Shown one piece after another: positions 5,377-45,982 of a stretch of DNA of 64,000 bases. The translations under genes and the position numbers were made by a program. This DNA is from Schmidtea polychroa (Eukaryota), in the NCBI GenBank assembly GCA_044892525.1, contig CM097885.1, forward strand, positions 28,832,001 to 28,896,000, written 5' to 3'. The notes beneath the pieces were generated by a model. It saw nothing but the letters and a program-made list of their open reading frames with translations, was not told where the DNA came from and did not search any database. Each line of letters begins with the position of its first letter. The stretch's first letter is position 1.

Positions 5377-5449
5377 TGAATTAACCGAATTGAACGAATA
5401 ACAATTTTATTTGAAATAGACTCGATGGAGTCGGCTCTATGTGGCAACA

Positions 5450-8906: not shown

Positions 8907-11863
<2,957 letters not shown>

Positions 11864-13239
11864 TCCATCTATATGTCGAATCAGACAAGAAAACATAAAT
11901 TTTCTGAACAAATCCGAAAAATGCAACTGCCTCAGTGCAAGCGTCATCAGCTGCAACCCCAGACAGATTCAGTGAGTGTGCCATAGAAGGAATATAGGAC
12001 GCCCTTTTCATGATTGCTGGCATTGTCGTATGTCTGACCTCTGCGAAAAAGTTTCAACAATTGTATCGAAGAGATGAATACCGGTGTGTGACGAAATTTG
12101 AACAAATTTTAGAAAACGTTCAACAGGTTGGCCATTACTTTTCACATAGCTAACCGTGAAAGTTAGTTGATCTGTGTATGATATATCAGGCGTAGAATCA
12201 ACACTGAAGAAAAAATACTTTGTCCTTTTTAATTCATCAATAATAGCTTTGATGACTTTTCTGGCCATTAGTCCCACAAATTCTTCATAAGTGGTGGATG
12301 ATAGGTATGATACGATACCACGACCAGCATTTCCATATGTGTCAATATGTCCCGCAATAAATGAATCATATTTGGCTAAGTACTCCAAACAACCCAAAAG
12401 GTTTCCATTATCTGCACTTCCAAAGGTTTCTGAAGATCCTCCACGCAATGCGAGGAATTTTATTGTTGAAACAACTCTCTTTAAGTCTTCTCTCCAATAA
12501 TTGCTTTGCTTATCAGCGTGCTCCCAAATTGATTTGTCCAAAGTCTGAACATTGGATATACGCGTTGCATAAGTAGTTAGAGCGTATCTGTGATCAGCTG
12601 ATTTTTCGTGTTGTTTAAGTCGATTTATGGTACTCCAGCTGTCAAATCCTGTAGTCGCAAGAGCAGACGAACTGTTTATCGAAAACAGTTTACATACAAA
12701 ACAAAAACGCATCCAGATGATGACGAATACAAAAGCCAATGCCTTTGAATTTTTTCTCCATTGTGAGATTGTGAATAAAATGCTGAATTGTTCAGTTTTC
12801 TGTTACAATTGGCATATTTCCTTAACGAATTTGCATAAACTCCATCACGGTTTGCACACGCATTGGGCCCAGCGTGGAGTCAATAATTCACAAGATTACT
12901 ATCCAGTACATCCCACAAGGCTGGCTCAGTTACAGAAATAATATCATGTTTAGTAGTGTCAAACAAAGTTAGCGTATTTACGATTGATTCAGGCTGGATG
13001 ATATTTAGTTGTTCTGATGAAGAAGTTATTTCATTAAAATCGTTTTCTTGCGGCGAAAAATCTGTTGCAGATGAACTTTGTAGTAATTTCTCAGTATCAG
13101 CTAATTTTATTTCAACGGATTCACTATAAGTTTCAGATCTTTTAACAAACTTATCGATTCCGCCACGTTGCAGTTCTGCCGCCTTTTCAAAAAGACGTTT
13201 TCTTTAACGTTTTTGTGCACCAGATTCAAATTTTTTCAT
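11864..13239 (-). pseudogene. ZMYM1-like (DUF4371/TTF zinc finger) hAT transposase fragment
   Basis: MKKFESGAQKR start, FCFVCKLF, HEKSADH, LALRG, DNGN, SVDSTPDIS..DQL, ERFL, AHSLNL, STYRW. Frameshifted and cut off at the ATC array. Confidence 0.85.
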
Positions 13240-14028: not shown

Positions 14029-15042
14029 TGTTGAGGTTTCAAAAATAAATTATTAAATTACATCAAATTGAATAGTTTCGAATAAAAAGAAAACCGAAAT
14101 TGAATGAAAAGGAATGGCGGGCAGGCAGAGTAGTAGTGGCAAAGAAAGATATGATAAAAACAGGACTATAAAAGGGTTCAATCAAACACGAAATGGAAAA
14201 ATGGACAAACCTGAGGAAGTGGAATAAAGTGAAATGTTATCGAAATTGAAGCTGGAAAACGGGAGAGGGGTATATTAGGGGATGGTGAAGAAGAAAGTTA
14301 GCAAGAAATTGTTAGAAAATGTTTAGAAAGGGTCGTAAAACAGGCAAATATGAAAAAACACAAAATATAAATTAATTAATTATTTGGCTAATGGGAAACC
14401 CGAGCTAATGGAAAGTCCGAGCCAATGGAGAACCCGAGCGATGAAGAAAACCCGAGAGCGGCAATTTGGAAGGATAAGCAAACTGGGAATCCAGAGGGCA
14501 ATTATCCAAACAGTCGGATAAACGAGGGTAAACAAAAGAAGGAGAATTACTAAGAGGGTCAACAAAAATAATTAATTAGAGAATGATAACTAAAGAAGTC
14601 AAAATAAATTAGGTCAAAAATGGAGCAATTACAACTATTATGGGAGTATATAAGGAAACTCCAAATTCAGATAATCGGCAGTAGCCTTTGGTAGTGAAGA
14701 AGAAACTGACAATAGGAATTTGAGGAACAAAGCCAAGAAAAAAAGGAATTATAAGAGGAACTAAAGAATTAGAAAAAGAGTATTAAAATAGTTTAAAACA
14801 GAGAGGGGAATCAAATAAAAAGGTGAAACTTATTTTTAAATCGCACAAGGTCGTGACTTTCCAGAGCAGAGTTCGATCGGAAATTGTGAGCAAAATCGTG
14901 GTAACTTTGAGTTGTAATTATTTATTGAGAATTTTAAATTTGCTATAAAAGAAATATAGGTTGGGAGTTGTGCTAATCAATTTTTGGAACACGTGGAGTC
15001 AGAGTAACCAACGGTTGATTTTTAGTATCATAAAACCCAACA
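14029..15042 (+). mobile_element. Solo LTR related to the Gypsy LTR at 30588-31405
   Basis: TGTTGAGG...AAAACCCAACA, internal AATGGxAAACCCGAG repeats, GGAACACGTGGAGTCAGAG motif, imperfect 4-bp TSD AATC/AATT. Confidence 0.8.
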
Positions 15043-17009: not shown

Positions 17010-19989
17010 GCATAGATGATCAAACTGAAAATGTCATTGAAGAAAATCATGTTTGAAAGTTGAAAATTTTCGGGTTTTCCATTTAACTCAGTAGAATTAT
17101 TAACCCTCCATACTCCTAGCATCCCTAGATGAACAAGACCCAACAAATTGTAAAGTATTATTTCCATCAAATAAGTGTATAATTATTCATACAATTTAAT
17201 TCTATTATAGCAAATAAATCTGTTTCAAATTTACATATACTAATACCGCGCTTACCACCTATTTCTAAATCAAATTAGCAAGCTTCATGTGCTTTCCATA
17301 GCTGGTTTTGTTTGACCAAACTGGTAGTTTCAATTATAAATAAGTTATTTGTAATCACTCGTTATAAATCATTGCTGGAGACCCCTTCATTTTTGCTATA
17401 TAAACACTATATAAACACTATAATCATCAAACATATCGATTTTTAATTCTAAAATTATCAAAAACTACTATTTTACTTTTTGATGATGATTGATGAGATT
17501 TTTTTAATTAATTATTAATTTAATATAAATTGTTACATTTACACCTCGTAGATAACTCCTTTTAATTTAAAAATATTTTATATATATTTAGTTTTTTAAT
17601 TATGTTGGGCTAGAACTGATTTTGAGACCAAGTGGTTGAGAGACGTCGGGATATAACACGCTAACATAACATCAAGTCGAGTCAAACTCAAACACATCCA
17701 AATATCAATTAAACAACTAAATAGAATTCAATCAACTCAAAAATAAAAGCAAGAAGTATTACAGGAAATAAACTCAAACACAACATAGATGCATAACAGA
17801 AGAAAGCAAATTTGAAAATATTACTATAGAAATGAACAAAAAACTAGAATGTTCTATAAAAATGGTGAAATCCATCATGACCTTAAAGTATTTTAGAGTA
17901 GTTAACTGAAAGATAAGAAATTTAAGAATTAGGTTAGCAAAAAACTAATCTGAAATAACAAATAAAATAATAAATAAAAAATGAAAAATAGAAAACATAA
18001 TAAGTAAATTATGAAAAATCACCATAAAAATTGATAGAATATTAAAATTCAAAGTTAAGTAGAATTAAAGTAATTTAAATTTTTCTTACTAAATCAATGC
18101 ACCACACATACTCGCACACCAAAATTAGGGTATATATACCGACGCATTCTAGTCACAATTTAACCAACTTGTGAATTGTAGTTACAATCTAATCTTTCTG
18201 TTTCTGTTAATCATTTTGTGAATTGTGGATCAAATTTGGATATACATCTTGTAGATAAAACTTACTATTTGTATTTTATTGATTTGGAAGTAAGGATTTT
18301 TTTTGTTTATTATATGATCATTACTAAATAGAGTTAGGTTCTAATCAAATGTTATTTACTATTCTTAGAACTAAATTTTTTTCAATAATGCATGATGCAA
18401 ACCATTTTCGGTCCACAGCCACTTTGCAAGCTGGAAGTCAGCAAAATCAAAATTATTTTCACTACGGGAAGTGGTAGTTGTACTACTCCATTTATTTGGA
18501 GTATTTGTAAGTAGGTAGATGTGAGCCCCATGAATCAGTATGAGTTATCGCGCATATATTGATTTTTAATTGCAAATTGTGCAAAGTGCAAAATGTGAAA
18601 ATGTGCAAAATGTAGTCAGAGGTGCTTTTCTTAGATTTAAAGATTTCACCCAGACATGGTCCACGAAAAAGATTTGTTATTTGTCGACACAGATTATTTT
18701 ATATGAAAATCAACGAAAAGATTTCTTTTCAATATAAATTTCACGTTTTTAAGGAATAAATTTGGAACATTGGGAACCAAGTATATTTAGTCAAGACATC
18801 CTTAACAGAAATGTTGTGTCTTGATTCAACTAAGAAAGTTCCGAAATAAAATCCTCGAAAAGTTTCTTGGTTCTCCCAGGAATTAAGAAAAGGTAAAAAC
18901 AATCGATAATTCTCAAAAATTCGGCTTTCCGGCGGACTGAAATATTTTCAACGCTTCTATTTATGACAGTGCATCGTATAATTTACATATTTTAATGGAT
19001 CTTTCTGCTTTCTATAGTAGTTATGAATGGAGATTTCAAATCTTTGTTCAAATGCATACTGTTATTGTGACAACTATGAATATTTGTTTAAATAAACTCA
19101 TTTGATTAATATATAGAGCCATTATAAATAGAGATATTAATACCAATGTTTTAGTTTTATATGTAATTTATATCAGAGATCTCGAATCTTTGTTTTAAAA
19201 ATTATTTTTCGCGCGCAATTTAAAAAATATTAACTATTTCTAATTAAATTTTCAAAACAATGAAACATTTATTAAAAACTATTTGAAATATTTATACAAT
19301 TCGTTAAGTAAAATGTTTACTGTTTGTTTTTTTTTGTAAGTAATACATTCTTAACATTGATATTAACAACATGAATCTTTTAGTAATTGAGTTTGCTTTT
19401 CATATCCATACATCATAAATTTATGGTGAAAATTAATGCGCTCTATGTTGATCCCAGTTGCCTGAAATATTTTGGCTAGTGCAATTTCCGGAGCCTAATT
19501 TATAATTTCATCTTTGTATACAATCTCTTTCCGTTTTACAGTAAATCCAAGATTGAATATACCAAGATGGAATCAGTATCAGAAATTGTTAAAGTGAAGA
19601 TAATTTAAGATAGCTATGAAATGATCAATCAAGCAAATAAAAATGTAATAATAATTGTTGACGATAGATATTTATTCTTTCAATGTTTGAGGCGACCATT
19701 TCAATTTTTATTTGAAACCTTAACTGATGCAAAACGCCTAGGATTTACTCTAATGCGCAACACTTTTGACGAAACGGTGAAATTTGATATTGATATTCTT
19801 CCAAAAACTGATACCATATTCAAATTTTAACTCTATATGGCATTTCAAGATGATTTTATATTACAGATATTGATCAATTACAAGTTTATTTATCAAAACA
19901 TTGTGCAAATATTTTCGCTGTTGTTGAATTAGACAAATTTAAAGAAAAATTTAAAGTAAAGATTCATCTTCATTTTATAAAAAACAAAT

Positions 19990-20460
19990 ATTTGGTGATA
20001 AACATTTGCCAAATTTTATTCTTGTAACTTTCCAATCAGAAGCACAATATAATGGTTCATATACAGAAACTAGCTCAAAATTCGCACATTTCAGTATAAC
20101 TTCTTTAACTTTATCGAAAAATTCTGATTATCGTGAAACATATACTCAAGATTTCGACAACGATAACTATGCTGCGACCTATATGCAATATATAGTTCGA
20201 AATATGGGTTAATTAGATAAGAATTTAAATTGTGGAATCAACATTGTAGATTTCAAGACCAAATATCCTTTCTTTACATTCATTTTGGCTCCAGATTTTG
20301 ATTGGAATCAAAGTCAATTGCCACAAAATGGAAATCTGAGACTTGATATCAAATTCAACAAGGCTTTAACATCTCCTGCATATGTAATTATTTATGGAGT
20401 TTTTGAAAGCGAAATACAGATTTCAGCAAATCGGTCAATTCTAGTTAAAACAAAGATGAA
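19990..20460 (+). pseudogene. Polinton/Maverick major capsid protein, C-terminal fragment
   Basis: PNFILVTFQSEAQYNGSY..KFAHFSITSL and GNLRLDIKFNKAL...VIIYGVFESEIQI match the Maverick MCP C-terminus. Internal stop present. Confidence 0.7.
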
Positions 20461-20496
20461 GTATGGAGTAAGTTTACTTTCTGATAAACGATTAAC

Positions 20497-20745
20497 TTGA
20501 TTAGTTATGTTCAGCTTAATTGTATTGCAACAAATCTGTTTGGAGACAAGTTTTTAGCAGTTTATCCGCTGGATAAAATCCCTTTTCTTGAAAGTAACAA
20601 TAATATAATAGTCAATACCCAATCCTCAAGTCTTGATGGTGAACATTGGCTAGATGTATTTGTTAAACCTGAAAAGATTAAAGTGTTTGATCCGATGGGT
20701 TACTGTTATCCGCCTCTGTTAGTGTCAAAGTTGTCGAAATTATCA
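20497..20745 (+). pseudogene. Polinton adenain-like cysteine protease, truncated
   Basis: IVNTQSSSLDGEHW...VFDPMG carries the catalytic His and Asp. The Cys-containing end is missing. Confidence 0.8.
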
Positions 20746-20754
20746 AAATTATTA

Positions 20755-21115
<361 letters not shown>

Positions 21116-22179
21116 TCCCTGATCAAAATTTAATAAAATCAATATTTTCTACAAATCAACAAAATATTTCACCTCATCTACCATCAAATACCTAATTAGA
21201 GATTATATTTTCTCATTTGATTGAAGAAAACTTTGATAAAATTATTCTGAGGTGCTAAGAATCTTCATTGAAATAGAATTATTAGTGAGAAAATAAATTG
21301 ATTGATCAAATTATTCATCGATTCCAACCAAATTTTATTATTCATTGAACTATATTATTCATAAAGGATGGAAATCTTAATTGAGATAGAATTAATGTCT
21401 ACTGGTATAATTGCTAAAGGAAAATACACTGACAAGTGGTATTGAAATGTTTTTAATGAAAAGTTGACGTATAAGATTGGAGATATATTAAGTATTTATT
21501 TAAAAAATATTTTACTAAAACATCACTTGAGTATTTAGTTCAATTTTACAGAAGAAATATTTGTGGGGTGAATATAAATCATTCAGTGATTATTAGTGTG
21601 AAAATAAATATTGTAAATCAGCGCATGTGTGTCTTTGTTATGTAATATGTCTTTGTTATGCAATATGTCTTTGTTATACAAAATTGAATGTAAAGATGGG
21701 GAAAGCTGGTTTGTAAATATTTCAATACAGAGATATAAAATGGATGAGAAAGATGTCACATCACCGATTTGGAAATTAGATAGTGCTCGAATTTCTCTGG
21801 GATTTTAATAAATGTTTAGTTTTTAATACATCTTTTAATATGTCTTTTATTATTTACTATCATAATGAGTTAAGTATAGATGAAAAATTTGTATTTTTTA
21901 AAAGTTGAAAATATGTGTGTATGTAAAAGTTGGCTGAAAAATGCATTGTTTAAGGTGTTATGATTATGAATTTGAAGTAAATAATGATGTCATTTTATAG
22001 AGATTAAAATTCTATCTATATATTGTTTGAGTGAAAATATCTCAATTTGTTTAAAAAGATGTGTAAATTCAAAAATTGGTGTACTAAAAATGAAATTTCA
22101 GAATTTTGATTACATCATAGTCTCATTTAATAGAGAATTAAATTTCAAGTATATTGAAATAAAAAATTCTTATAAAAAA

Positions 22180-22413
22180 TTAAAATTAATGATGTAATCA
22201 ATGATTAAAACAAAATTAAATTATTATGTAATCGATATTTAAAGCAAAAGTATTACGTAACCAATGGTTTAAACGAAAATTAGAAATTATTGCGTAATCG
22301 ATGATTAAAACAAAAAATTTAAATTAAAAAAATATTATGGGGTGGGGACATTTTAAAAATTTTTACAAAAAAAGTAGGGGGGCCTGGATCTGGACCCTAC
22401 ATAACTACCTACT
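22180..22413 (-). mobile_element. Probable Polinton terminus with subterminal repeats
   Basis: Minus strand begins AGTAGGTAG, followed by a C-rich block. Short tandem repeats resemble 59120-59245 in inverted orientation. Confidence 0.55.
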
Positions 22414-22419
22414 ATATAT

Positions 22420-22660
22420 ATATATATAACAAAATGATTGCATATTAAAAGAGGATTGTTCTGCAGGACTGAGAATGAAAAGCTGTTTGCCATTTCTCTG
22501 GTAATAATGATTTACTTTATTATCTGCTATTTCCTCTACATTCTTTAAAAAATCAAATATGCAATTTAACCCAATAAATTGAAAATATGAGGAAGCTCCG
22601 CTAAAATTGTTTGTCAGCAAAAGTCCAGCTGAAATCGGTATGTTTTTTTTCGGTAAGTTT
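22420..22660 (-). pseudogene. Fragment resembling the N-terminal region of Polinton pPolB
   Basis: YFQFIGLNCIFDFL...LSPAEQSSFNMQSFCYI parallels ISPEQFTEYENSTICWL at ~44250. Confidence 0.5.
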
Positions 22661-24810
22661 TTCCTGATCATCTTGTAATTTTTCGATATTATTTACCGTT
22701 TTAATTGCCATGAATATTGTATTTTCGCAATTTTTCTCATCTTGATCAACATTATTTTCTAAAGGTATTCTCGACATAGCATCCGCATTTGCATTTGACT
22801 TTCCTGTACGATACTTTATCTCGAAATCATATTCTTGCAACGCAATTGACCACCTAATTAATTTACTGGCCGAATCTCTGTGCTTCATTAGCCATTGTAA
22901 CGGATTGTGATCCGTAAAGACAACAAATTTTCTGCCTACTAGGTATTGTCGAAAAGTGGTTATCCCATATACCAATGCTAACGTTTCTTTTTCGATTGTC
23001 GAATAATTTTTTCATGAGGTTTCATTGATCTGCTGGCATAAGCAATTAAATGATCTTTTTCCCCTTCTACTTGCTGTCCTAATACCGCGCCTAATGCGAA
23101 ATTACTGGCATCTGTCATTAATGTAAACGGTTTTTTATAGTTCGGACATCTTAATATCGGCTGTTTTATTAAGCTTTCTTTGAGTTTATCAAACGCTTCC
23201 TGCTGAGCTGTTGTCCATTTAAATTTTGCTTGCTTTTTCAATAACATGTTCAAATGTTGTGCGACATGTGAGAAACTTTTAATAAACTTTCTGTAATAAC
23301 TAGCTAATCCCAGAAATTGTCGAACCTGATCTACATCCTTGGGACTAGGATATTTCTTAATTTTCTCTACATTTTCTGGATTTGGTTGCAAACCTCGACG
23401 CGAAATAATATGACCCACATAAACGACTTCAGATTTCCCCCATTCACATTTGGAGGGTTTTATTTTTAAGTTTGCTTCTAACAATCTCTTGAATACTGTT
23501 TCCACATCCTTCAAATGTTCCTGAAAACTATTCGAAAATATTATAATATCGTCAATATACACTAATGCATGTGGTATATCGCGCAAAACAAAATTCATAC
23601 CTCTCTGAAATGTAGCAGGTGCTCCTGTTAATCCGAATGGTAACACGTTAAACTCATATAGACCCTTCCCATCTGAAAATGCAGTTTTCCTTCTATCTTC
23701 CTCTTTGACTTTAAATTGATTGTATCCTTTATTAAGATCTATTACCGTAAAATATTGCACCTGCCCCATTTGATCGAACATTTCCTGTGGAACAGGAATA
23801 GGATATGTATCTTTTCTCGTAACTTGGTTCAATTTTCGATAGTCGACACAAAATCTTAAATCACCGTCCTTCTTTTTAACTACTACTATTGATGATGAGA
23901 ATGGTGAGGAACTTATTATATTGAATTCTTTCATTGCTTTGATTTGCCGATCACTTTCTTCCTGATGTATGTATGGTATTCTATACGGCCGTAATTTTAT
24001 TGGGGTTTCGTTGAGTAATAGTATTTCATGTTCAATCACCTGAGTGAGTCCCAGATCATACTCATGTTTTGCAAATACATTTCTATATTTCTTTAATAAT
24101 AAACCAAATTCTTGTTTTTGCAAATCCGTTAAATCTTTGCTTGTGATCTGAGGTTCTTTATAAATTTTTATATTTCTCGGTAACTTCTGAGCTTCCTCTG
24201 ATTTGATTTTTGTTAATTTTCCCAATTTGGTTTTGGGCTTTATTTCAACGGATCTTGCACTATAATTCGCTATTCTAACTGGTACTGACTTATTTTGGAC
24301 TTTCACTACTTCGTCACACATAGGCACATCGTATTTTTCAACCAGCTTTTGATTTGGCTCAAATATGTACTCCTCATCTGAGACCCTCAAAGTATATTAC
24401 TTCGCTTTTTGATGGTACTTCCAATGTTTGGTTTAGAAATACCTCTCCTACTTCAGGCACTATTTCACCCATTTGTCCTTTTATTAGTTTTCCAGTTCTC
24501 AGATCAAGAGAGATTCCATGTAGTTGCTCCATGACATCCATGCCAATAAGACATTTTACAGGACTTTTTCTCATCACTGATACCCAATGAATTATTTCTT
24601 GATCTCCAATTATCAGTTTAACTTCTAATTTTCCAACAATATTTAGTGCATTATGTGACATTGATTTAATAATGTGATTCGTTGGTTTTATTTTGGCTCT
24701 CTCCTGATACGTCAAGAAGCTTTCCGCTACTATAGTATGACTTGAGTTTGAGTCTAATAAAGCTTCCACTTTTCTCTTGTTAAACTGTATGTTTATTCGA
24801 GGTTGTTTTC
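22660..24810 (-). pseudogene. Gypsy pol: protease, RT, RNase H
   Basis: ALLDSNSSH (degenerate DSG), RFCVDYRKLN, LPFGLTGAPATFQ, YIDD, FLGLASYYRKFI, TDASNFALGAVL, FTDHNPL, NANADAMSR. Frameshifts near 24385 and 23000. Confidence 0.95.
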
Positions 24811-25229
24811 CTCCTACTACTGTTGTCATTAGTGCATAGCTGCATGGTAGACCAAGCATATTCTTTCTTTCAATTTCAGCACTCGTTGGTTCAATCTTCT
24901 CTAATTCTATTGTGATATTATCGACCGATTTCATCTCTTTTAGTTTTTCACTTGGATATACTGGTGCTGTTGGTCTAAATGTCGGGGTGTACCATCTACT
25001 AAAAGTATCAATACCGCTTAATTTTGGCATTGGTTCAAGCAAGAACCTAGACTCTGGCTCTACTTTACTCTTTATTACACTTTTTCGAAAGCATTTATGA
25101 TCCAATTCCCCGTTGTTGTTATCATCATTATGATCGTCGTTTTTATCTTCCGAGTGACACGTAGATTCCTCACTTTTCCGGCCATTTCTGAATTGTGCCC
25201 TTACTCTTGCCATTTCTTTAAATTGATGA

Positions 25230-27033
25230 TCTGTAATAAAGAATCTAGCCAACAATGGAATACAACCAATAATTTATTTCCATGACCATCCCGATATTGC
25301 ATATATTCGATGTACTGACAACATTTGCGACACTACCACCTTTGCCGTTATCACAATCACGTAAATTCCAATTAAACCTGCACATGCTTGTCCCAAAAAC
25401 ATGAACCTGCCCCAAATCTTTTCCATCGTTTTATATGTAGCTCGTTTGAAATGATCAGGTGTTAGCAAATTTCCGTAATTTACTGTTCCTTCTCCATTCG
25501 GTAATACTGTGTCAATCATTTCTGAAATTATCCGTTCCTTTTTGGATGGAAACAACAAATTCCTTTGAGCTTCTTCGATATCTTCGCTTGCATACAAGCC
25601 CATTTGTGCCATTTTGTTCAGTGATGTGAAATTTATCAGGTATTCTAAATTTGTTAATTCTAGTTTGTCTGGAGTCTTGACCCCACGATAGTCTGGTAAG
25701 GCTATCCATGAGTCGGTAGCTAATCGGTATAAAGGGGCAAATAATCGATTGCATTGCAAAAGTTTTGGTTTAGTTTGTTCATCAAGCAAGATTCTAGTTA
25801 TCGGTTCCATAAATCGTACCTTTCCCCCAAAGCTTACTGGTAATTCGTTCGTACATTTTTCGTATTTGGCAATTTTCACTGTGACTTCTTTGCATTTGTA
25901 ACTGTATAATGCTTCTCCAAATATTCTCGCAAACACTCCATTTTCTGATATTAGCATAGGTGCTACTAAATTTGGATTCGTAATTGCCATCGCCATCCGA
26001 TTTCGGAGAATCTCTTTATTCAACTTGCAATCGTTCAGAATCATTTCTCTATATACATTTTCCATGATGTTTTGACTAAAATGAAACAAATAATCAATTT
26101 TATTATTAAAATAATGAGTAAGTTTAATGTCATCTTTATGAATTTTAATTTTTGCTTCTTCCACAACATTTCTAGACACGTGAACACCTTTATAATTTGT
26201 CACATATACCATTCGACCACATTTATTTGTAATTTCCTTTTTTATAAATCGCATTCCATCTGCTGGTAACGTAGACATTAAAACTGTTCCCATTTATTTT
26301 GTCCATACTGGGGTTGATTTAATGGTATTATTTGGTCTATAATTCATATTGAAATTATCTGGTTTATCTCTAAACTGTTCTCCTACTAGTTCTTTAAAGT
26401 TCATAGTTTTTAAGTGCGCTAAATTACACTTATTTGTTTCTACATTATAAACAAGAATCGATTCCCCTGTTTGACAATGTGTTTGTTTCATATAACAGAA
26501 TGGATGAGTTTTCTTCTAGCACTACTGTTTGCTGAATAATTTTACCGTTCATTTTATATGGTTCACCTTCACAGTCGCCATTTGCTTTCATAACTCCCTT
26601 TACAATTATTGTTTCTCGTATCCTATGATTCAATTTTGCCTTTAAACGAATTTCTGGACTTATTTTTAATTCTCCTGTTTGAAATGCTGCTAGACAGTTT
26701 TCTGGAAGCACCTCGACTGGCCTAGGTATCGCATGCATTTTTATGAGTGACGTATGGCTCCATTTACCACAATAGAATACAAATGTTGTATGTTTGACAA
26801 TACACTCTCTCACTTGAGTTCTTCGCAAATCAAACTCTTGATACACATAATATTTTACGTCATTTTCTATTTTAAAAACTGCTCGGATACGCACCTGGGC
26901 ATTCCGACATATCTACTACCGAATAAACTTTTCCCATTTCAGTTTGGGAACAATCGTACGCAACTAAAGATGATATCTGTGTAATTATTGCACAAAACGT
27001 ATTCACCATAAACATCGCCCATGGAAATATCAT
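25230..27033 (-). pseudogene. Chuvirus-like (class III fusion) envelope glycoprotein
   Basis: Signal peptide then AYDC..YSVVDMSECP, FYCGKWSH, C.G, NDCKLNKEIL, GEALYSYKCKEVTV, CTNELPV, FMEPITRIL, C-terminal TM FMFLGQACAGLIGIYVIV and GWSW. Two frameshifts and two stops. Confidence 0.85.
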
Positions 27034-28947
27034 AGTTTTTCTTAGTTCTGGCTTAACTCTTTCATTTACTCGTCTTTGTGGTGGACTCATTTCTTGCTTC
27101 TCATTTTTCTTTTCTGTTAGAGATGAACACAGTGTTTTCCAACCACCTTTTTCGTTTACCCAGCTCATTAAATATTCGTTTACTAGCCGGGCAGCGATGT
27201 CTATCAAATTTTCTAACTTGTCTGACCTTGCGAAAGTATGCGTTCCAATTTCTAAAACAACATAAGTTAAAGCTATTATTATAACTTCCTTATTAATTTC
27301 ATTTTTTGTCAAATTTTCAATTACTGATCTCTCGCAAAATGTATTCTCTTCGCCAAATTTCTGCATCACTTCAGGAAGCCTATTCTTGATCTCTTTAACT
27401 ATTTCTTTCAGTTCATCATCTACCTCTATTTCTATGTCGAACATTGGATATACTGCTTTAACGAGGTGTTTCAACATTTGCTTAGTTTCGTCGACGTCTT
27501 GTTCCAGCCTCACTAAATATTTCTTTATTTCATATAAAGTTCTAACTTTCTTATTTTTGATTTCACCATTTATTTCGCCTTCGGGTACAAGTGGCTCTCC
27601 TTGTACGTCTGTTTCAGTGGACTGATCTTTGTTATCAAGATCTTTTTGCTCATCATCACTAACGATTTCATCAATTTCTTTATTTCCCTTAACTTTTTCA
27701 CCTTGTTCCTCTGTGTCAGGCTTGTTAGACTCAATATTTACTTCTAAACTCACTCCTTTTACTACTACTATATGGTTCACTAAATATCCCACTCGTCCAT
27801 CTCGGATCAAATATCCATTTTCATCCAGCTCTTGTGGTACACACCCACAATCATATAGGTATTCATCATCGTCAAGTTCTTCACCTTTGTACATTACTAT
27901 AATAATTCCATCTTTTCCCAGCGTTTCAGCCGCTCTCTTCCGCAATTTTCGGACCTTTGCACACCAATGCTCATCTACATATTCAGTTTTCCCATATCCC
28001 TCATAATCTAATGCTATAAAAAATGGCTTTAACTCTACTCTTGCCTTTCTAAGCTCCTTGCCCAATCTTTGCAATAAACTTCTTAATAACTTGGCATATC
28101 TGGTTTTCACATGTAAATATGGTCGTATTGCATTCACTATTTTTAGTTTATCGTTTTCCTCCATTTCTAATTTCTCAATAATCTGTAACTTCTCATTGAT
28201 TTCATCTTCATCTCCAATATATAACGTATCATTTAATTCCTCTAATATCTCTCTTGAATTCCTTTTGTCTATTATTTCACTACTCATTATTTCATCATTA
28301 GTAACTACATTTTCCATTTTTAATTCATTTGTACTTCCTGGTATAAATCCGCAATCTACCAAAAATTCGTCATTTTCTAACAATCTCTCATTAAATCTCA
28401 ACTCTATCATGCATCCTTCCTTTTTTTCTTTTAATTTATTCTTTAAATCATTTACACAATCATTTGCCTCACAACGACAACATAATACACTTTTATCAAT
28501 CTCGTTTACTACTTCCACAAAAATGAAATCTAACTCTGTTTTCTCTCTCAAAGTTTTTCCAAATATTTTCATTAATTTTTTAATTTCGTCTTTATACTTT
28601 GGATTCATATTATAATAGTTAACGCACAAGCTAATTACACTTTTTATCTTTCTCATACTCAAAGATATTTGACTTAATTCTCTTAACGATTTGATTACTT
28701 TAGCCGACTCTATTTCATTATTTCCAATTAGTTTTTCGATTCTTGTCATTATCATTGTTGCTTTTACACTTTCTAAATCATCTTTTATAACTCTCCTTTT
28801 CGATTGCTTTTCATTTAATTCCTCTTGCGACTCATACATCATGTGATTATTGTAGTCCTCTTCTGATTCAAACTTTGACATCAATCGATCCAAACGTCGA
28901 CCCATTTCTCTCACTTCGCTTTCAATTCTTTCATTAAAATTATCTGG
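27034..28947 (-). CDS. Accessory region: two helical+ubiquitin-like modules and a Bcl-2-like domain
   Basis: UBL-like LRFNERLLENDEFLVDCGF and MYKGEELDDDEYLYDCGC. BH1-like NEINKEVIIIAL and BH2 LMSWVNEKGGWKTL. Confidence 0.7.
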
Positions 28948-30212
28948 CTACATTATCCATCTGCGGTTTGTCACTCTGAAACCTAATCGATTTTGGAATT
29001 TATCCATATTTCTTGGACATGATCTGGCCATCTGTCCATAACTTCTGCATGAATGGCATTGAATTTGTCCTTGTAGATTTACTTTATCTCTCTGCGGTGA
29101 TGGTGATGTTGATGTTGATCTTGACCTGGCAAAACAATTTCGTGACACATGCCCTTTTCTTCTGCAATTAAAGCATTGCAAGTTATCATTAGTTCTCTGA
29201 TCATTAATGTTTGCTTTAGTGAAACTTTTCGCACCATTTCCTTTTAACCAATCGGGTCACATTTGCCTTGGACTACGTTGTACATTATTTTTGGACCAGC
29301 ATTGATTGCTGTCATGTCCCATTCTTTGGCAATTATCACACTGAATCGGAATTGGGCTTCTCTGTACTTTATTTTTAAACCAGCATTGGTTAACATGGTG
29401 TCCAATCCTTTAGCAATGACTGCATTGGATGGGACCTTCCTTTCTATCTATTTGAATATCTGTTGACTTGTTCGACTCAAATTTGGATCTAAATTTTGGT
29501 GATGGACTACTTGTTTGTTGAAAACGATTGTTTCTAATTGGGGTTATTGCTCTTTCGCTTGCGCCTGAGATGACTGCAAACGACTCTGATTTCGACTGTG
29601 TGCTTTTTAAATTTAGCTCAATTTTCATTGCCTTTTTGATCAATTCATCAAAGTCATTAAAATCAACATAGCATAAAGCCTTTTTAATTTCTTTCTTTAC
29701 TCCTGACAAGAATTGATCCTGCAGTAATTCTTTTACCTGCTTTGCCATCTCGGCCTGTTCTGGTTTCACTTCGAACGCTTTCTCTGCAAGAGTTGATAAA
29801 TGATAAGCAAACTCACTTACCGATTCCTCTGGCTTTTGTACGCGGTTATAGAATTTCTGTAGCATGACCTTTTTATATCCCCTCCGATTAATTTCGTGGC
29901 TAGCGCGTCTTTCAACTAGGTCCAGTCATTTGCTACTAATCTTTTATCAATTTGTTGCCACGTTTCTCTGGCTGCTCCTTTCAGGTATAGCGGTAATCTT
30001 TGCACCATTATCGATTGGCTCCATCCATAGGCTGTCGCATACATATAGAAATCTGCCATAAAATCGACAAATTCCAATGGATCTCCACCGTACTGATCTA
30101 CAGGTAGTTTTTGACAACTCGCATAATCATTGCCTTCCTTGCTGTTGCCCACCGTGGACACAGGTGTTTCATCATTGTTATTTGTATTATTGGTTAGTCT
30201 TTGGGTACTCAT
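28948..30212 (-). pseudogene. Gypsy gag with four CCHC-type zinc knuckles
   Basis: LPLYLKGAARE, RVQKPEESVSEFA, DQFLSG. Knuckles CSHC*RIGHHVNQC, CDNCQRMGHDSNQC, CFNCRRKGHVSRNC, CHSCRSYGQMARSC. Confidence 0.92.
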
Positions 30213-30565
30213 TAAATTCTCTATTAGTGTTTGGCTTCTCAATTTATAAAATGATCGGGTCAACCCAGGCTTTAAAGTGTTACAATTACAAAATTTACCT
30301 TTCGTTTTAATTTTGACTTTTCAACAATCAATCGCCACAAATTTTCCCACTTTGCTTCAATAATAAAATCACCACTTTAATAATTCTTGAATGATGTTCA
30401 CCACTTTCAAATAAACGTTTCACTTCAATATTTATTTATTTAATTATTATCTTTTTCCAAATTCTTCGATACTTTACCAATCTCAACAAATTTTCACCGA
30501 TCTTTTTTACTCCTCGGTATCACTCAAATATTATCACAATTTCAACAACTCTTCACCGACTTTTG

Positions 30566-30583
30566 ATCACGTCGGGCTCACCA
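30566..30583 (-). promoter_or_regulatory. Primer-binding site, tRNA-Trp type
   Basis: TGGTGAGCCCGACGTGAT, 4 nt after the LTR end. Confidence 0.85.
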
Positions 30584-30587
30584 AATA

Positions 30588-31405
30588 TGTTGGGTTTTTA
30601 ATGTAAGTCGGTACTACGGTCTGACTCCTTTGTGTTCTTTTCCAAATAAATAAATAAATAACCCAACACAAAATCTTTATTAACACTGATGCAGTTACAC
30701 TTTTACACTTTTTATTAGTTTACACACACTTGACACAATCCGGTTTGTCTGCACTTTTCAAATTGCCAACAAATCTCAACTTTAATATTTCCCTTTTCGC
30801 TCTCGTTACTTCGACTTTCTTTTCTTCGACCAACTGGCAGTTTTGTTTTCTTGCCAGTTGCTTTTATACCCACTTGGTAATTGACTTTATTTTTTGCCAA
30901 TTATTTTTGGTCTTACTTCCCCCCGGGCTTCCTCTTGGAGGTCTAATTCAATTTAAGGGAATTGGCTCATTTTCTTTGACGGCTCTTATTACTTTTATTT
31001 TATCCGGCTAAATAAATTGCCTTCCCAAAATTGGATTTCTCCGGCTGAATTAATTGCCTTCCCAAAATTGGATTTCTCAATTCGCTAGGGTTTTCCATTG
31101 TCTCGGGTTTCCCATTAGCTCGGGTTCTCCATTAGCTCGGGTTTTCCATTAGTTAATTAATTTTTAATTAATTTTTGTTTTTTTTGTAATTTATTCCTTT
31201 TAGGGACCCCATATTGATTTTATTTTATTATAGCTGAACTCGTCTCATTATTTAGCATCCGCCCATACCAGTTTCCCCCGGAAAATATTCATTTTTTAAA
31301 ATTTTTGATTTTTAAATAATATTTTGTACTTTAAATTTTATTTTGAATTTGGTGTTTTTATCAATTTTCACCTCATTTTTGTGCCTCTCTTGTTGAACCC
31401 CAACA
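30588..31405 (-). repeat. 5' LTR of the Gypsy element
   Basis: TGTTGGGG...CCCAACA inverted termini, adjacent PBS, similarity to the two solo LTRs. Confidence 0.88.
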
Positions 31406-38403: not shown

Positions 38404-39149
38404 ATGTCTGATAAATATTCAAGAACCCTATTAATTAATTCTACCGAATCTGATTTTACAATAAATTTTGAAGGCTCCATAAATTTAAATCAGAATTTAA
38501 ATTATGAATTAGGATTATTATGATTTATTTGTTACAACACTGTTTTCAATATAAATATTAATAATAATAATTTTACTACAAGTAATGAAATAGGACAAAG
38601 AAAATTATAACAATTGAACCAGGGTCATATAAATTAATAGATTTAAATAAAAAAATTTTAAAGGAAACAAGTGGAAATGTAGAAATAAAAGCAGATTTTC
38701 CAACATCACAATGTATTTTGACAATAAAAAATATTACACTTAGTTTTGATAATTCTAGTTTCTTTCATACTATTTTGAGTTTTGAATCCAAAGAATATAG
38801 TGGTATTCCAAATATTGCAATTATAAAATCCACAAATATTATAAAAATAACAAATACAAATTCAATAAAGATAGAGTGTAATTGTATAACAAGATCATAC
38901 AATAATGGAAAACAAACAAACATTTTATATTCTTTTCCATCAAATACTGTTAGAGTGGGATACAAAATAATCGAAAGAATGAATCCTCCAAATTATTTAC
39001 ACTTGTGTAGAAAAAATATATGTAATATTAATTTTAAAATTGTTGATGAAAATGGACAAGTGATTGATTTTAATGGTGAAGAAATTTCATTTTATTTGCA
39101 TTTGAAACAGGTGTATATTTTATTTGCATTTGAAGCAAGTTTAAATTAA
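38404..39149 (+). pseudogene. Polinton minor capsid (penton)
   Basis: YELGL, YNTVFNI, IECNCITRSYNNG..ILYSFP, GYKIIE, IVDENGQVIDFNGEEISFYLHLK. Confidence 0.85.
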
Positions 39150-39166
39150 AAATTATTATTATAAAA

Positions 39167-40191
39167 ATGAATTATGCTCCTCATAATAAGTATGAAATAT
39201 ATAATGATGGATTAAATGTTGAACAAGTATTATCTCTTACAGAAAAGAAATATGTTAATGAAGGGGGTGATTCTATGAAGGGTGATTTAAAAATGAATGG
39301 ACACCAAATAAAAGAATTATCTTGGCCAATTAATGAAGGTGATGCAGTTAATAAAAAATATACTGATTTAACAACAACAAGAATTGAAAGTTCATTAACA
39401 ACAAAATTTGATTCAATGGGAACTACGGTTAATGCCTTGATAGAATCCAAAGTAAATTCTTTGATGGAATGCAAGCTTAATAATATTAATTCTTTGATGA
39501 AATATAAGCTTAATAATATCGAACAGCGATTTAATGAAAATTTATTAAGTTACAAAGTCAGTTAACTGAACAAGTTGTAAAATTAAATGCTGCCATATTA
39601 AATTCTACAGATAAACAAATTATGAATACTAAATTTAATACAATATATAAGACAATAAATGAGATAATTAGATCATTTAATAAAAGAGTTTCAAATTTAG
39701 AGTCTCACACAACACATATTAACCCTACACACATCATTAGAAAAAGAGCTGCTGAATTACAAGAGAATTATGTATCATTACCTAATACATATAAATATTT
39801 AACAGAGCCAATTTCAATAACAACAAATAGTAAAGAATGGTCTTGTTTAATGATTGTAAAAATTATTGATCCATATTTCTTTTTATTTACTGATGATGAC
39901 AATGATCAAACAATGAAATGGTTCGTGAAATGTGAGTATAATAGTAAGCTTAAAAATGATGATGTTATAATGACTAGTTATGATTTGTCACATGGGTATT
40001 GGCATGATAATACTGAATCGTATAAAACAAATAAAGTCAAAAATAAGAATATTAATTTTGCTAGTTCACTAGTACATTATATAGATTTAATATTTTATGA
40101 TAAAAGATTGATGCTAACGAGGTTCGTAAAGCGTTGTCCGAGTTGTATAAAGATGTGCTCACATCAAGACCATGTGATATACGAGTGTTGA
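39167..40191 (+). pseudogene. Putative Polinton fiber-like protein
   Basis: GGDSMKGDLKMNGHQIKEL..P....DAVNKKY tail-fiber-type motif, then a coiled coil. Located after penton. Confidence 0.55.
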
Positions 40192-40534: not shown

Positions 40535-43500
40535 CTAATGATATCTAATTCTAACTTTAGTAATTTGAACATCTGTTAAATCAAGTCCATATTTCGTATT
40601 ATATTTTTTTAATTTTTTAATGTGTGGAATTATATCACTTCCAAAAGGAATTGTATGAATTCCATTAGATAAAACATACCTTTTATCATCATAATTATCC
40701 AGCGAAGTTTTTAAAGATTCTTGTAGAAAGATGTCATGCTTATCAGATTTAATTTGGTGAACTATTTCTGCTTGTTTCTCAGATTCTGGTTTTAAACAAT
40801 CTATAAAATTTTGGTGTGTAATTTTTTTAGCTACACATTTTTGAATTCCTTAATTTCTATTTTCTTGACCTTGCTCTAATAAAAGAGAATATTGTTTTGG
40901 TCGAATAAATATTGCTTCACTTATTGGATTGTTGGGTTTCTCATCTTTAAAAGTAAATAATTTACCAGTTATATTTATTAATTTATTCAAGTTTTCATTT
41001 TCTAATATTTCCTTGTATATATCTGAAGAATAAATTCTTAAAAACATACTATCTGTATCCATTGCATGCATTGATATTCTATCTTGAAAATGTGGTTGTA
41101 ATACATCATAATAAGTTTCATACATTTGAAGTCTCGATAATTCTAAAATACTATATCCAATAAACATTGGCTTATTGTATGTTTTTTCATAATTTCCTAT
41201 TTCCACTGCAACTAAATTTCTTGAAAATATTTGTGTATTTTTAAATGTTGGTTTTGATATTATCCTATTATATTTTGCAAAATCCTTTTGACTGTTTGTT
41301 AATCAACTGAATCTTTGTATACTTCTCAATATTTTCCATTGTTTTTCCAAAGACTGAATTATTTAATAATTTAGACATGGTATCTCCAAATGCATCACCA
41401 GCTCTTTTATTCGCATTTCTCATTTCAATATTATGTTCAATATATTTTTTCATGAAAGGTTTCTGTTTAAAGCTTAAAATATTATGAACTTTGTCGAGTT
41501 TCATCCATGTCTGAGATAAAATTGTAAGAGTCTATAATGTACAAGATAATTTTGTTTATTTGTTTGATCACATAATAATTTTGTGCTAATAGCATGGAGA
41601 TTTTTCTTTTCCCATGGTGATAATTCATCTTCACTTATTTTTCTTTTTATTGGTGCAAATGGAAAATATTGTGTTTTGTGTTTTATATTATTTTGATATT
41701 CTAAATCAACTTCTAGAAAATATCCAATTTCGAATCCTTGAGTGTATTTAATATATTGTTTATTAATTCATTGGTTACTTCTTGCCATTCAAATGAGGAA
41801 ATTGGTAAATATTGTGTCATAATTCTTGAATACAAAGCTGTTGCATCAATGTATAAAATTTCACATGTATAAATTTTCACATGAAATAATATTAAAACAA
41901 TCTATTATTACATCAAATTCTTCTTTTGTTATTTATACGAAGGGTTCTGTTGCATCTTTCAACCATTTTGAATAAACATATTTTGAATTCAATGCAGTTA
42001 TGTATCTTTCACCCATTATGGAACTAATTCCACCACGAATACTATTTTTTGAACATGTTGAACATGTTGACATCAAATAATAATTCAATAGATTTGTTTG
42101 ATTCGGTTGTTTCACATTCCATACCATATAATATTATATCCCAAGCTAATGATGGTAATGTTATATAATTATAAGGTTTCAATGGAAATGTCTTTATAAA
42201 CTTTTCAAAACAATCTGAGAGAATATAAACATCTAGACTTAGATATACATCTGTATAATCACCCATGGTTTGAGAGTTAAATAATTCCCACATTTTTCTA
42301 GCCCGGGTATCTTCTTGTTCAGTTAAAATTGATTGGTTTAATATAGAATAACATTTTTCATGTGGGGGTAATTCAGTTTCTAAATATTTATCAAATGAAT
42401 CCATATAATCATATGGATATACTCCTTTTGCTAAACATGTTGGATATTCTTGTATTGGAATATTATATTTTATCAAAACATTTTCTGTTGTATATTTAAA
42501 ATCTTCACTTTTCATTGTTTTTGCTATCGAGTCTAAACTCATTTCAAAGAAATTTAGAGAATCTATGAATTTTAAACATCCATATTCTACACATTTATAT
42601 TTTTCTTTTGTTATGACGAAATTTTGAGCTATGACGAAATATATTTAAAATCTTGAAACAATATATGTAAAAACTTGAAACAATATATTTAAAATCTTGA
42701 AATAATATATTTAAAATCTTGAAATAATATATGTAAAAACTTGAAACAATATATTTAAAATCTTGAAATAATATATTTAAAATCTTGAAATAATATATTT
42801 AAAATCTTGACTAAAGTACTCTTCAATCGGATTTAACTGGGGGGAGTAAGGGGGTAAAAATCGAAAATTAATATTATTAGACTCCAACAGACTAATAACA
42901 GTTCTGGAATGGTGAAACCTATAGTTATCCATTATCAATACGTCATTCGGATTAGATCTAAAATGGCTCAACAACTTTTCCTCAATAAAACCACAAAAAC
43001 TTTCTCCGTTAAAAGCACCATCTTTGATTTCATAAGAAACTATTCCAGATTTCTTAATTGCCACCATACAACTGATATTAGTACCACGATTGCCTTTAAC
43101 GATTTTGTAGGCTTTTGAATTTTTGGGCGAGTAACCGTAGTTCCTGGTTTGATGCAAATTCAGTCCGGTTTCATCCGAAAAAACCAAATGATCATTCGAG
43201 ATAAAACTTGTTTCACGGGCGTATCTTTGCCTTAGATCGATATTTTTAGGGGTGTTTCGTTCCTTTGGAATTCTGACCAGTCGTTTCCGGGTATATTCCA
43301 TCTTTTTAAGTATTTTAGAAACAGCACTCGAGCACCCAGTTATTCCGGAGTGTTGCAACTCTTCGGATAGTTCGGGCTGGGTAAATGAGGCGTCTCTTTG
43401 TAAAATTTGGCTTATTTTGGATTTCACGACGGACAAATCTGCCATTTTCCTTCCTTTCTTCGGACCGCAGATTTCTTCGTCCGTTGCGCCGTCGCATAGT

Positions 43501-45982
43501 TTTCCGACCAGGTTATATGCGGTCTGCAGACTAATCTCTTGCTCGGAGGCGATTGTTTTTGTATCGGTATTTTTTTTCAACCGATTTTCGGACTCGTTTT
43601 ATGATTTCGAGCGTAACAGTTTGCCGCTTTTTTCGAACCCTGACATCTTGGTGCTCTTCGGAGGTTTGTTCAGTGCTGTTGGACATGGTTGAGGGATTTA
43701 GTTTTGAATGCATAAATTCCAGTCTTAAAATATATCGATGTAGGTTTTTAAAATTTCAATATAAGTTTTTAGATATATTGTTTCAAGATTTTAAATATAT
43801 TATTTAAAGATTTTAAATATATTGTTTCAAGTTTTTACATATATTGTTTCAAGATTTTAAATATATTATTTCAAGATTTTAAATATATTATTTCAAGATT
43901 TTAAATATATTATTTCAAGATTTTAAATATATTATTTCAAGATTTTAAATATATTTCGTCATAACCCTGTAAACCAATAACTTTAAAACTGTTTTTTGCA
44001 TTAATTGCTAAATGTTTTGGGGACAAATGTATATCATGTCCAAACAGATTATGAAATATAACTGGTATGAATTTCGGTTTTTTACAATTTAAATTACAAT
44101 TATTATGAGCTGCCCCTCTGAAATTATTTAATTTTTTAAAATGATCATTATCTAGAACTTTTGGATTATTAAAATTGTGGAAACCCCCGAATTCTTGTTT
44201 ATGCAACCAACAAATTGTAGAATTTTCATATTCTGTAAATTGTTCTGGTGAAATATTTAATAGAAAATCAGTTTTTAATTTTTTAAATAAGAATGATTCC
44301 AAGGAATTTATACTTGTAACAAAATGATCTAGGGTATCCCCTGGTGAAATTCCCCGATATACTATTTCGTGTGATTCAATTATTTCTGGATAATTACTTT
44401 TGATAAATAAATGATATGCTTATGGAACTTGTTTAGTTAATTTTACTGTAAAAGGTTTTTTGTTTAGTTTAAGAAAGTTTTTCATTTTTTCTATTTGGTT
44501 TGGTTGAGAATCTGTTTGTGTTCTTGTTCCTAAATCATATTCATACCAAGATTCTGATAATTTATTTTTTTCTATAACATTTAGGTATTCTTGTTCTAAA
44601 TTTTGTGGTATATTAATTGCTTCAAAATCTCCATAAATTGTAACAAGAAATTCTAATAAATTTGAATAATTTTTAAATTTCATTTCAAGATTCTCTGGCT
44701 TTTTAATTAATGCTGGTTCATTATATCGACATAATCTTTCATGTTTTATTCTGACAGCATCAGAAGTTGAATAATAAGTACATCTTTCACAAGTGTATCC
44801 TTGTACTCGATGAGAGGATGATGATCTAGATCTCATAAAACTTTGAAAATTTTTTATCCATACATAATGAGAAATTAAATCATTGTATCAGTTGAAATCT
44901 TTTCTAATATTAATAAACTTATTGTATCAAAAAGTACGGTTGAAGAATTCACACTTGATCTATAATATAAATTGGCATAACCTCGTCGCCATCTAATTCA
45001 TAAATATTAATTCTAAGTTGATTCAATCTTTCAAATTTTGACATGTGTTCTATTTTCATTGGGTTCTCAAAACCATCTCAGAATAAAATTTCATATTCAT
45101 ATTGTCGATATTTAGATACTCGATAAGAATGTTGTTCTTGAAGATGTAAAGCTGATAGTATTGCCCATAGGAAACATTTATTATCTTTATTTTGAACATT
45201 TATTATGTGTTTAGAAATAAAAAGCGTTGGAATATAGGATTTGGGAACTGAGGGATTTCTTTTCCAATAATCTATTTGAATATTTTCAAAGGAATCGAAA
45301 CGTAAATTTGATTCTCCTAATTCTTGTTCAGATTGTTCTTGGGATTCTCGCAACTCTCGAATAACTTCTTTGATTGTTTTTTTAAATCCTTTCATTGAAT
45401 ATAAATATTTATAATCAATTTGAATTCTAAATTTTAAAAGATTTTCTGATTGGTCTATGGATTGGTCAATCTGTCGACAATATTTTGCGTTTATTCCAAT
45501 TTTATATTTTATAATATTAAACCTTGCACCTTTGAATCTTTTTATATCTTTTTCCATTGATTCTTTTATTTCATCTGAATTTTTTTTAATATATGAAGAA
45601 ATTGTGGATGCTCCAATTTATTCACTACCAGATTCATCAACATGATTAAATTCATTCCAACCTTCATCTTCATCTTCATCTTCACATTCTTTAGAGTGTT
45701 CCTTTAATTCAAATTTACTTTTGAAGACTTCGTGACACTTGAGACATGAAAATGATTCTCTTATTTTTTTTATTTCAATACAATTTCTGAAATGTTTATC
45801 AAACCCTAAAAAAATATCTTTCTTTACACTTGGTACAAATTTTAGAGTTGTTATCATCTAATAAACTTGATTTCCTTAAATGATCTTTTGATTTTTTATG
45901 TGAAATTAATCCCGTTTTTGATTTGAAACTCCTATTACATGAATTACAAAAATAATCTTGGGAAGTTTTCTGAAGTATCCAT
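40535..45982 (-). pseudogene. Protein-primed DNA polymerase B, interrupted by a transposon
   Basis: NKDNKCFLWAI, YGDFEA, FRGAAHNNCNL, FHNL, KGVYPYDY, IRGGIS, YIDATALY, KLLNNSVFGK, MDTDSMF, YDDKRY. Confidence 0.93.
42610..43969 (-). mobile_element. Tc1/IS630-like DNA transposon with tandem ~24-bp repeats in its long TIRs
   Basis: Right end TA|CAGGGTTATGACGAAA. Transposase 42777-43686 has FSDETG, MDN..FH and LPPYSPQLNPIEE. C-terminus deleted, one frameshift. Confidence 0.92.

Follow-up and report, generated by a model that had tools for sequence, protein, structure and literature searches.

The stretch analysed here (the window) comprises 64,000 nucleotides of Schmidtea polychroa (GenBank assembly GCA_044892525.1, contig CM097885.1, positions 28,832,001 to 28,896,000) and contains a long terminal repeat (LTR) retroelement, all parts of which lie on the minus strand. 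Its Pfam matches follow one another in the order zinc knuckles, Monjiviricetes_fusion, aspartic protease (PR), reverse transcriptase (RT) and RNase H (RH), so that a viral-type glycoprotein (G) stands between gag and the protease (Table 1). We consider it probable, taking the parts of this reading jointly, that the element is a decayed, 3′-truncated copy of a multicopy, recently amplified Ty3/Gypsy family of the planarian Burro/GAG-ENV-POL errantivirus group, and that the single polyprotein of its full copies would be threaded through the membrane of the endoplasmic reticulum (ER) and cut by signal peptidase and the element's own protease to give enveloped particles.

The glycoprotein is joined in frame to both of its neighbours. 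The open reading frame (ORF) with the last two zinc knuckles (28948-29256) shares its frame with a 691-codon stop-to-stop ORF (26872-28947), one stop (28948-28950) lying between them. An earlier note on this DNA had seen here a clean single stop; the common frame was retained, but the stop sits between private deletions of 16 and 11 nt. As that note had it, the last part of the 691-codon ORF encodes, judged by hydropathy, a hydrophobic segment resembling a signal peptide and then the beginning of the glycoprotein. The ORF map likewise bears out its coordinates for the other border, where a single TAA (25274-25276) is all that parts the C-terminal glycoprotein ORF (25274-26293), with its transmembrane end, from the protease ORF (24374-25273) in the same frame. 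This TAA is private to the window copy among the copies compared, as are most of its 14 breaks, 13 of which occur in none of the other 20 compared copies.

The limits of the LTR were also placed correctly, since genome-wide homology begins at 31405 and many solo-LTR-like matches end at 30588. At the same time, the opposite edge, put by the note at 22660, is not the true end of the element: the copy is cut before the integrase (IN) by another abundant repeat (2,131 candidates; window ~21700-22658), which begins exactly at the cut-off at 22659. The 3′ half was absent from the DNA then at hand, and the Bcl-2-like and ubiquitin-like domains had been passed over. The integrase, a second membrane protein, a further ORF (ORF2) and the 3′ LTR are seen only in the sister copies L019, L029 and L030.

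The hallmarks of LTR elements (TG..CA termini, primer-binding site, polypurine tract, short target-site duplication) were found in the one full copy examined, and the Pol order PR-RT-RH-IN in L019, L016 and L018 is that of Ty3/Gypsy (Metaviridae). In a PDB search, the RT was closest to Ty3/Gypsy (E 2e-74), with further matches at 2e-41, 2e-30 and 5e-24; the entries we take to be, in this order, Ty3, caulimovirus-type, foamy and MLV-type. The Pol tree comprised eight rows and no outgroup. The primer site has 954 exact matches in the genome against 0 for the control and is common to at least one sibling family. In L036 (G000:C4 from ~55,022,400), tRNA-Trp genes, whose product is the primer tRNA of these elements, are repeated in tandem every 284 bp, and most of the 856 pattern matches probably lie in this array. 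The spacer between PR and RT gave no Pfam match and no relevant PDB match and is like the dUTPase-like domain of Burro in size and position only.

Table 1. Features of the window copy in the 5′ to 3′ order of the element
Feature	Position	Strand	Evidence
5′ LTR, 818 bp, TG...CA	30588..31405	-	Genome homology limits; paired LTRs, polypurine tract and 4-nt target-site duplication in one sister copy
Primer-binding site complementary to tRNA-Trp 3′ end	30566..30583	-	Genome matches; tRNA-Trp genes with matching 3′ part
gag, broken here: start codon 30212, capsid-like region ~29593-30119, four CCHC knuckles 29008-29430	29008..30212	-	ORFs, Pfam
Accessory unit 1: helical 28528-28764 and ubiquitin-like 28324-28512	28324..28764	-	Pfam ubiquitin E 0.0023, below curated cut-off; internal repeat
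Accessory unit 2: second helical and ubiquitin-like unit	27790..28257	-	Similarity to unit 1 and P0009
Bcl-2-like domain	27139..27411	-	Pfam PF00452, profile 1-100, E 1.6e-4, below cut-off
Internal signal peptide ahead of glycoprotein (predicted)	26962..27045	-	Hydropathy; similarly placed hydrophobic stretch in most relatives
Class III fusogen ectodomain (chuvirus G/herpes gB type); frameshifts, stops and internal deletion here	25418..26961	-	Pfam, structure model
Glycoprotein transmembrane helix and weaker hydrophobic stretch after it; private stop 25274-25276	25223..25417	-	Hydropathy, copy comparison
Aspartic protease, catalytic motif altered in window copy	24518..24808	-	Pfam RVP E 4e-5
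Spacer where Burro has dUTPase-like domain	24169..24460	-	Position only
Reverse transcriptase, Ty3/Gypsy type	23404..23880	-	Pfam RVT_1 E 5e-34
RNase H, frameshift-split	22829..23142	-	Pfam, copy comparison
Linker to 3′ truncation at 22659	22659..22828	-	Sister-copy comparison

Sister copies and the single open frame

A genome search with the G segment gave 922 candidates, of which 40 were scored (mostly 93-95% identical) and 20 of the scored copies were fetched as 10-kb stretches. All 20 are colinear with the window across G; since they were chosen by the G segment itself, this colinearity alone is no proof that copies lacking G are absent. Six of them are open from gag into PR or RT over 1,956-2,395 codons, and L019 is open from the accessory region through IN (2,417 codons). 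A second search, with the far 3′ end of the element, gave 1,979 candidates. Among the 104 best matches, which were scored and do not provide a genome-wide rate, a frame of at least 3,400 codons was found in 23, and in 18 of these it measures exactly 3,437 codons from stop to stop. Thus, the single Gag-accessory-Env-Pol polyprotein, which the earlier note had ascribed to an ancestor, exists in natural copies, many of which carry it, and the uninterrupted frame from gag into pol that was sought in sister copies is present in several of them. Frames of 3,334 codons, at first read as belonging to the same family, turned out to represent a second family without a Bcl-2 match and were not counted.

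In copies holding both marker peptides, the frame was open from knuckle to accessory region in 13/14, from Bcl-2 to G in 17/19, from the G transmembrane helix to PR in 13/15 and from RH to IN in 10/13. Breaks were mapped on one natural copy used as a ruler, and their positions are private, except in two near-duplicate copies and for one stop common to the window and L013. Programmed readthrough or frameshifting at the gag/accessory or G/PR borders was rejected, since the breaks are private.

A full sister copy measures ~16.7 kb, with a polypurine tract, a 4-nt duplication and LTRs of 0.8-0.9 kb. Across 909 aligned columns its two LTRs show 21 mismatches and 9 gaps, which points to a young family whose copies are not all fresh insertions. 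Four contig sets whose RNA origin was guessed covered 30, 22, 9 and 30 of 30 bins, which is no evidence on expression either way, and canonical intron ends were found in 0 of the 15 listed joints (of 23) in these sets. A loose scan revealed no recurring protease-site motif in the window family.

The layout is shared by other families of the same genome. A second compact family (L037:1-1995) has a 3,334-codon ORF with G ahead of PR and a homologous membrane protein after the integrase; it gave no Bcl-2 match, and no ORF of at least 120 aa was found in the 2.2 kb downstream of its main ORF. A longer element of the same layout (L032:1-9998) shares 52% identity with the window family in RT-RH and 38% over the initial part of G. 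Its accessory region is much longer and resembles, by eye, several helical and ubiquitin-like units followed by a Bcl-2-like stretch and then G.

Glycoprotein, accessory domains and the 3′ half

The chuvirus-type nature of the glycoprotein, suggested by the earlier note, was confirmed by profile and fold, and G may be described as a class III fusogen of the gB/chuvirus type whose fusion activity is predicted. Against Pfam PF24664 (Monjiviricetes_fusion), the two pieces of G in the window copy scored E 2.6e-60 and 7.7e-15, and G of the sister copies E ~1e-87 over the whole ectodomain. The AlphaFold model, built from an alignment with 98 relatives, reached a predicted local distance difference test (pLDDT) value of 92 and contains a 48-residue central helix. 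Foldseek found herpesvirus gB as the best solved match to this model (E 5.8e-15, template modelling (TM) score ~0.4) and chu-like glycoproteins as the best viral models (E 2.4e-42, TM score 0.67).

Selection was assessed in 20 copies, the window included and one near-duplicate excluded, by comparing variants common to at least two copies with singletons. For shared variants, G had a nonsynonymous to synonymous (N/S) ratio of 0.02 (2 N, 24 S), RT one of 0.04 and RH one of 0.0; the accessory region (0.15) and the initial 168 codons downstream of IN (0.13) gave higher values, and the singletons in G gave 0.89. Judged from these small counts in kindred copies, G is under purifying selection as strong as that on RT, and the low shared ratio together with the high singleton ratio suggests that G is selected during replication of the element and decays after insertion. 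The whole ectodomain and its cysteines are kept.

A search with G gave 1,495 representatives at E ≤0.001, and the closest among the 150 listed were long proteins. A protease domain follows G in P0007-P0009 and in 10 of 12 long matches scanned, several with RT-RH-IN, the other two stopping within G or shortly behind it. Even relatives that are 26-43% identical in G have it ahead of PR in a single frame. Stand-alone G matches are ~21-29% identical and fall outside the polyprotein-embedded group in a quick tree of 16 polyprotein rows (two without a PR match) and 40 of 98 stand-alone rows. A branch separates the embedded sequences from the rest, but its support of 91 is below the tool's bar of 95, so a single origin of polyprotein-embedded G is not shown by this tree. 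Two arrangements among the relatives may be recorded in their own right: several tandem aspartic-protease-like domains after G, in some also after the integrase, in P0008, P0009, P0010, P0011 and P0018, and a stand-alone chu-like G fused straight to a Gypsy RNase H domain in P0060, which is either a chimera or another capture.

Between gag and G, a helical plus ubiquitin-like unit repeats internally (unit 1 against unit 2, E 2e-4) and recurs in P0007-P0009 (unit 2 against P0009, E 4e-12); unit 2 alone gave no Pfam match. All 60 listed PDB matches of the Bcl-2-like domain are Bcl-2-family proteins, all of them weak (E 0.12-0.98). Ubiquitin-like and Bcl-2-like domains ahead of env, comparable to the Ub/SUMO-like and BCL2-like domains of Burro, are thus suggested by weak but consistent matches. 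For the accessory region the ESM Atlas returned nothing, and neither did PDB for that region as a whole; a TFIIS-N-like reading of the helical units drew no support from any tool.

In the sister copies, the ORF continues past the integrase into a second signal-like hydrophobic stretch, ~330 residues rich in N-glycosylation sequons, a strong transmembrane helix and a short tail. This segment seems to be a type I membrane protein behind a second predicted signal peptide. Its homologue in the second family of the genome is 38% identical, while the integrases are 81% identical, which argues for an old, fast-diverging tail. A predicted signal peptide and transmembrane helix after the integrase also occur in the database relatives P0011 and P0013; P0021 has a signal peptide and P0008 none. 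In the ESM Atlas, the ten best matches having a family all belonged to the FN3 family or clan, with scores <0.9, and the alignment of the two families has recurring W and L-x5-Y patterns, which we take to resemble the FN3 motif. Pfam, PDB and homologue searches gave no support for an FN3 fold, and a single-sequence AlphaFold model reached a pLDDT of 35; the FN3-like nature is a lead only.

ORF2 is a separate ORF, starting 436 nt after the main ORF and comprising 489 aa from the first ATG. It matches ISG20L2 (E 2.5e-11) and ISG20, with recognisable acidic motifs, and is accordingly a predicted ISG20-like DEDD exonuclease; Pfam gave no match. It is 96-100% identical in 86/86 scored loci and is followed by a 2.5-kb untranslated stretch and the 3′ LTR.

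Proposed mechanism and rival explanations

As shown by the sister copies, a full copy has a primer site for tRNA-Trp and encodes in one ORF of ~3,400 codons Gag with four knuckles, two helical plus ubiquitin-like units, the Bcl-2-like domain, a signal peptide, the class III fusogen with its transmembrane helix, PR, RT, RH, IN, the second signal peptide, an ectodomain, a transmembrane helix and a short tail, with ORF2 after it. Gag and the accessory domains would be made in the cytosol. The first signal peptide would then route G to the lumen of the ER; after cleavage by signal peptidase it would remain attached to the Bcl-2-like domain as a tail anchor. The transmembrane helix of G would bring the chain back to the cytosol, so that PR-RT-RH-IN is strung between this helix and the second signal peptide; the second ectodomain would be luminal, and signal peptidase would release the second membrane protein. 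The element protease would release the cytosolic domains. Gag, Env and Pol would be produced 1:1:1 without a frameshift. With such a topology, which we infer from hydropathy and from how signal peptidase and retroviral proteases generally act, Gag and Pol part at the ER in equal amounts, and so Pol probably enters the particle by membrane tethering, not as a Gag-Pol fusion. Budding particles would carry G as trimers and could then enter further cells of the same animal by fusion. Host defences based on cell death and on RNA would probably be weakened by the Bcl-2-like domain and the exonuclease.

Several points weigh against this proposal. Open frames were less frequent from PR to RT (6/13), from RT to RH (6/12) and from IN to the second signal peptide (7/14), which we attribute to private breaks over long spans. 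The ubiquitin and Bcl-2 matches are weak, falling below the Pfam cut-offs. The compared copies are close kin, so the shared variants are few and not independent. The ORF contains no R-x-K/R-R site. The topology is drawn from hydropathy, and if the second, weaker hydrophobic stretch after the transmembrane helix of G crosses the membrane, Pol would be luminal. Budding, particles, fusion, infectivity and transmission between cells are hypotheses, as are the functions given to the Bcl-2-like domain and the exonuclease.

A nested insertion of env, which the earlier note had kept in view, or a chance event confined to the window locus has a negligible probability: the segment lies at the same place in all 20 copies picked by G, loci retrieved through the distal 3′ end have an open frame spanning it, and no second LTR lies inside the window copy. 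It is also quite improbable that the single ORF is resolved at the RNA level, by splicing or internal starts giving separate Gag-Pol and Env, so that the chain never threads the ER whole. This would explain how Pol is packaged without a Gag fusion, and Cer1 does use splicing (PMC10309623). Nevertheless, the frame is kept over both G borders in nearly all copies, and G and PR share one frame in distant relatives, neither of which separate messages need.

More weight, albeit as an unlikely alternative, belongs to a real polyprotein whose G serves inside the cell, by anchoring assembly at the ER, crossing internal membranes or blocking receptors, the element retrotransposing within stem cells. 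Extracellular particles are hypothetical for the window family, the entry mechanism of gB-type elements is stated as unknown in the Discussion of PMC13524379, and a 1:1:1 Gag:Env output is unlike that of retroviruses. However, anchoring alone needs only hydrophobic stretches, whereas the whole ectodomain and its cysteines are kept and G is constrained like RT. A fusogen threaded through the ER as part of the polyprotein and carried on enveloped particles remains the preferred reading.

A bolder extension, possible but in our view doubtful, is that these elements are true enveloped flatworm viruses whose two-protein entry apparatus derives from a single chain. The gB-type fusogen would stand ahead of Pol, and a fast-evolving FN3-like type I membrane protein after the integrase would act as attachment or trigger protein or as receptor decoy, with Pol strung between both anchors for packaging. 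The attachment or trigger role would be comparable to that of gD/gH for herpes gB. If true, this would identify the partner that is still missing from gB-type errantivirus entry, and also a new way to package Pol. If the proposed topology holds, Gag and Pol would reside on separate chains and Pol packaging would differ from that of other LTR elements. Cell-to-cell spread would, in addition, bear on transposon movement among planarian stem cells.

Neighbouring elements and comparison with published systems

Other mobile elements surround the described copy. Window 1-6047 (minus strand) holds a BEL/Pao-type element whose Gag ORF (2436-6047) has a well-conserved ubiquitin domain (Pfam E 2.9e-22) just ahead of DUF1759, that is, a ubiquitin-Gag fusion. 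A Tc1/mariner-like DDE transposase (42777-43598, Pfam DDE_3 E 7e-30) lies between long inverted arms of 22-bp repeats (42594-43977), and ~1.5 kb of pure trinucleotide repeat adjoins a hAT-like transposase piece (DUF4371, E 2.7e-7; 10301-12053 and 12008-12802). On the plus strand, two in-frame ORFs of 444 and 331 aa across one stop (49461-51791) are transposase-like by eye, with no Pfam match. Fragments at 19955-20760, 38589-40191, 42042-42644 and 45078-45617 are by eye Polinton/adintovirus-like (capsid, protease, DNA polymerase B); the four scanned gave no informative Pfam match. Probable LTR remnants, recognised by short similarity to the LTR's repeated part, lie at 14353-14456 and 46859-46943.

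The earlier note had proposed a candidate new lineage. This claim has to be withdrawn, since env between gag and pol has already been published for planarian Burro elements (PMC6431247) and flatworm GAG-ENV-POL errantiviruses (PMC13524379), and a close sister family is listed among the latter. The in-frame position was described in 2019 for the giant Burro/GYPSM1 Gypsy elements (PMC6431247, Arkhipova and Yushenova), in which, as in the window family, env lies within one ORF. Burro is larger (>30 kb with an ORF of 4,873 aa, against ~16.7 kb and 3,437 codons stop to stop), and Burro1 carries MATH/TRAF, BIR and ankyrin cargo (PMC6431247); it also carries an IAP (PMC13465017). The window family gave no MATH, BIR or ankyrin match in Pfam. 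Because of these differences in size and cargo, the family was not assigned to Burro1-4; it is probably a separate sequence family. The account of Burro in PMC6431247 mentions neither a post-integrase membrane protein nor an exonuclease ORF in its relevant passages.

GAG-ENV-POL elements with gB-type ENV were reported from Platyhelminthes, Nematoda and Bryozoa, six of them from Schmidtea mediterranea (PMC13524379, Chary and Hayashi 2026), and are not monophyletic across phyla (PMC13524379). Smed_errantivirus_1 resembles the window family in its Ty3/Gypsy Pol, gB-type ENV between GAG and POL and multicopy state (45 copies listed), and its G domain I/II row differs from P0001 at 52/251 positions (~79% identical, counted by eye; PMC13524379). 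The main text of PMC13524379 does not contain the terms polyprotein, fused, Burro, Bcl, ubiquitin, fibronectin or exonuclease and names neither LTRs nor tRNAs for the six Smed elements. The entry partner of gB-type envelopes is a gap pointed out there, and the post-integrase membrane protein is a candidate to fill it. The LTRs, tRNA-Trp priming, single ORF, post-integrase membrane protein and ORF2 of the window family are defined here.

A chuvirus glycoprotein is also found in mosquito BEL-Pao elements, presumably those named Anakin. Their fusogen is of the same family, but the backbone is Pao, not Gypsy (Dezordi et al., PMC7642597; PMC13524379). Atlas virus of hookworm, with one Gag-Pol-Env polyprotein and its envelope proteins after Pol, is a precedent for a membrane protein behind the integrase, although it belongs to Belpaoviridae, has a class II phlebovirus-like envelope and carries nothing between gag and pol (PMC9094657). 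The rotifer Juno/Vesta LTR elements possess a 3′ accessory ORF3 for a DEDD-family exonuclease, like ORF2; theirs is DEDDy/RNase D-like, whereas ORF2 is closest to ISG20L2/ISG20 (PMC5408684).

The layout is therefore of a known kind, and what seems to be unreported is the post-integrase membrane protein and the ISG20-like ORF, for which the literature searches made here, and PMC6431247 and PMC13524379, gave no published account in these elements; they may appear in Lee et al. 2026, Grohme et al. 2018, Repbase, figures or the sequence files of the eLife authors. Half the size of Burro1, very abundant and with a fusogen under selection, the family is a good test object. Under the published operational definition it counts among the Ty3/Gypsy GAG-ENV-POL errantiviruses, and it would work like Burro.

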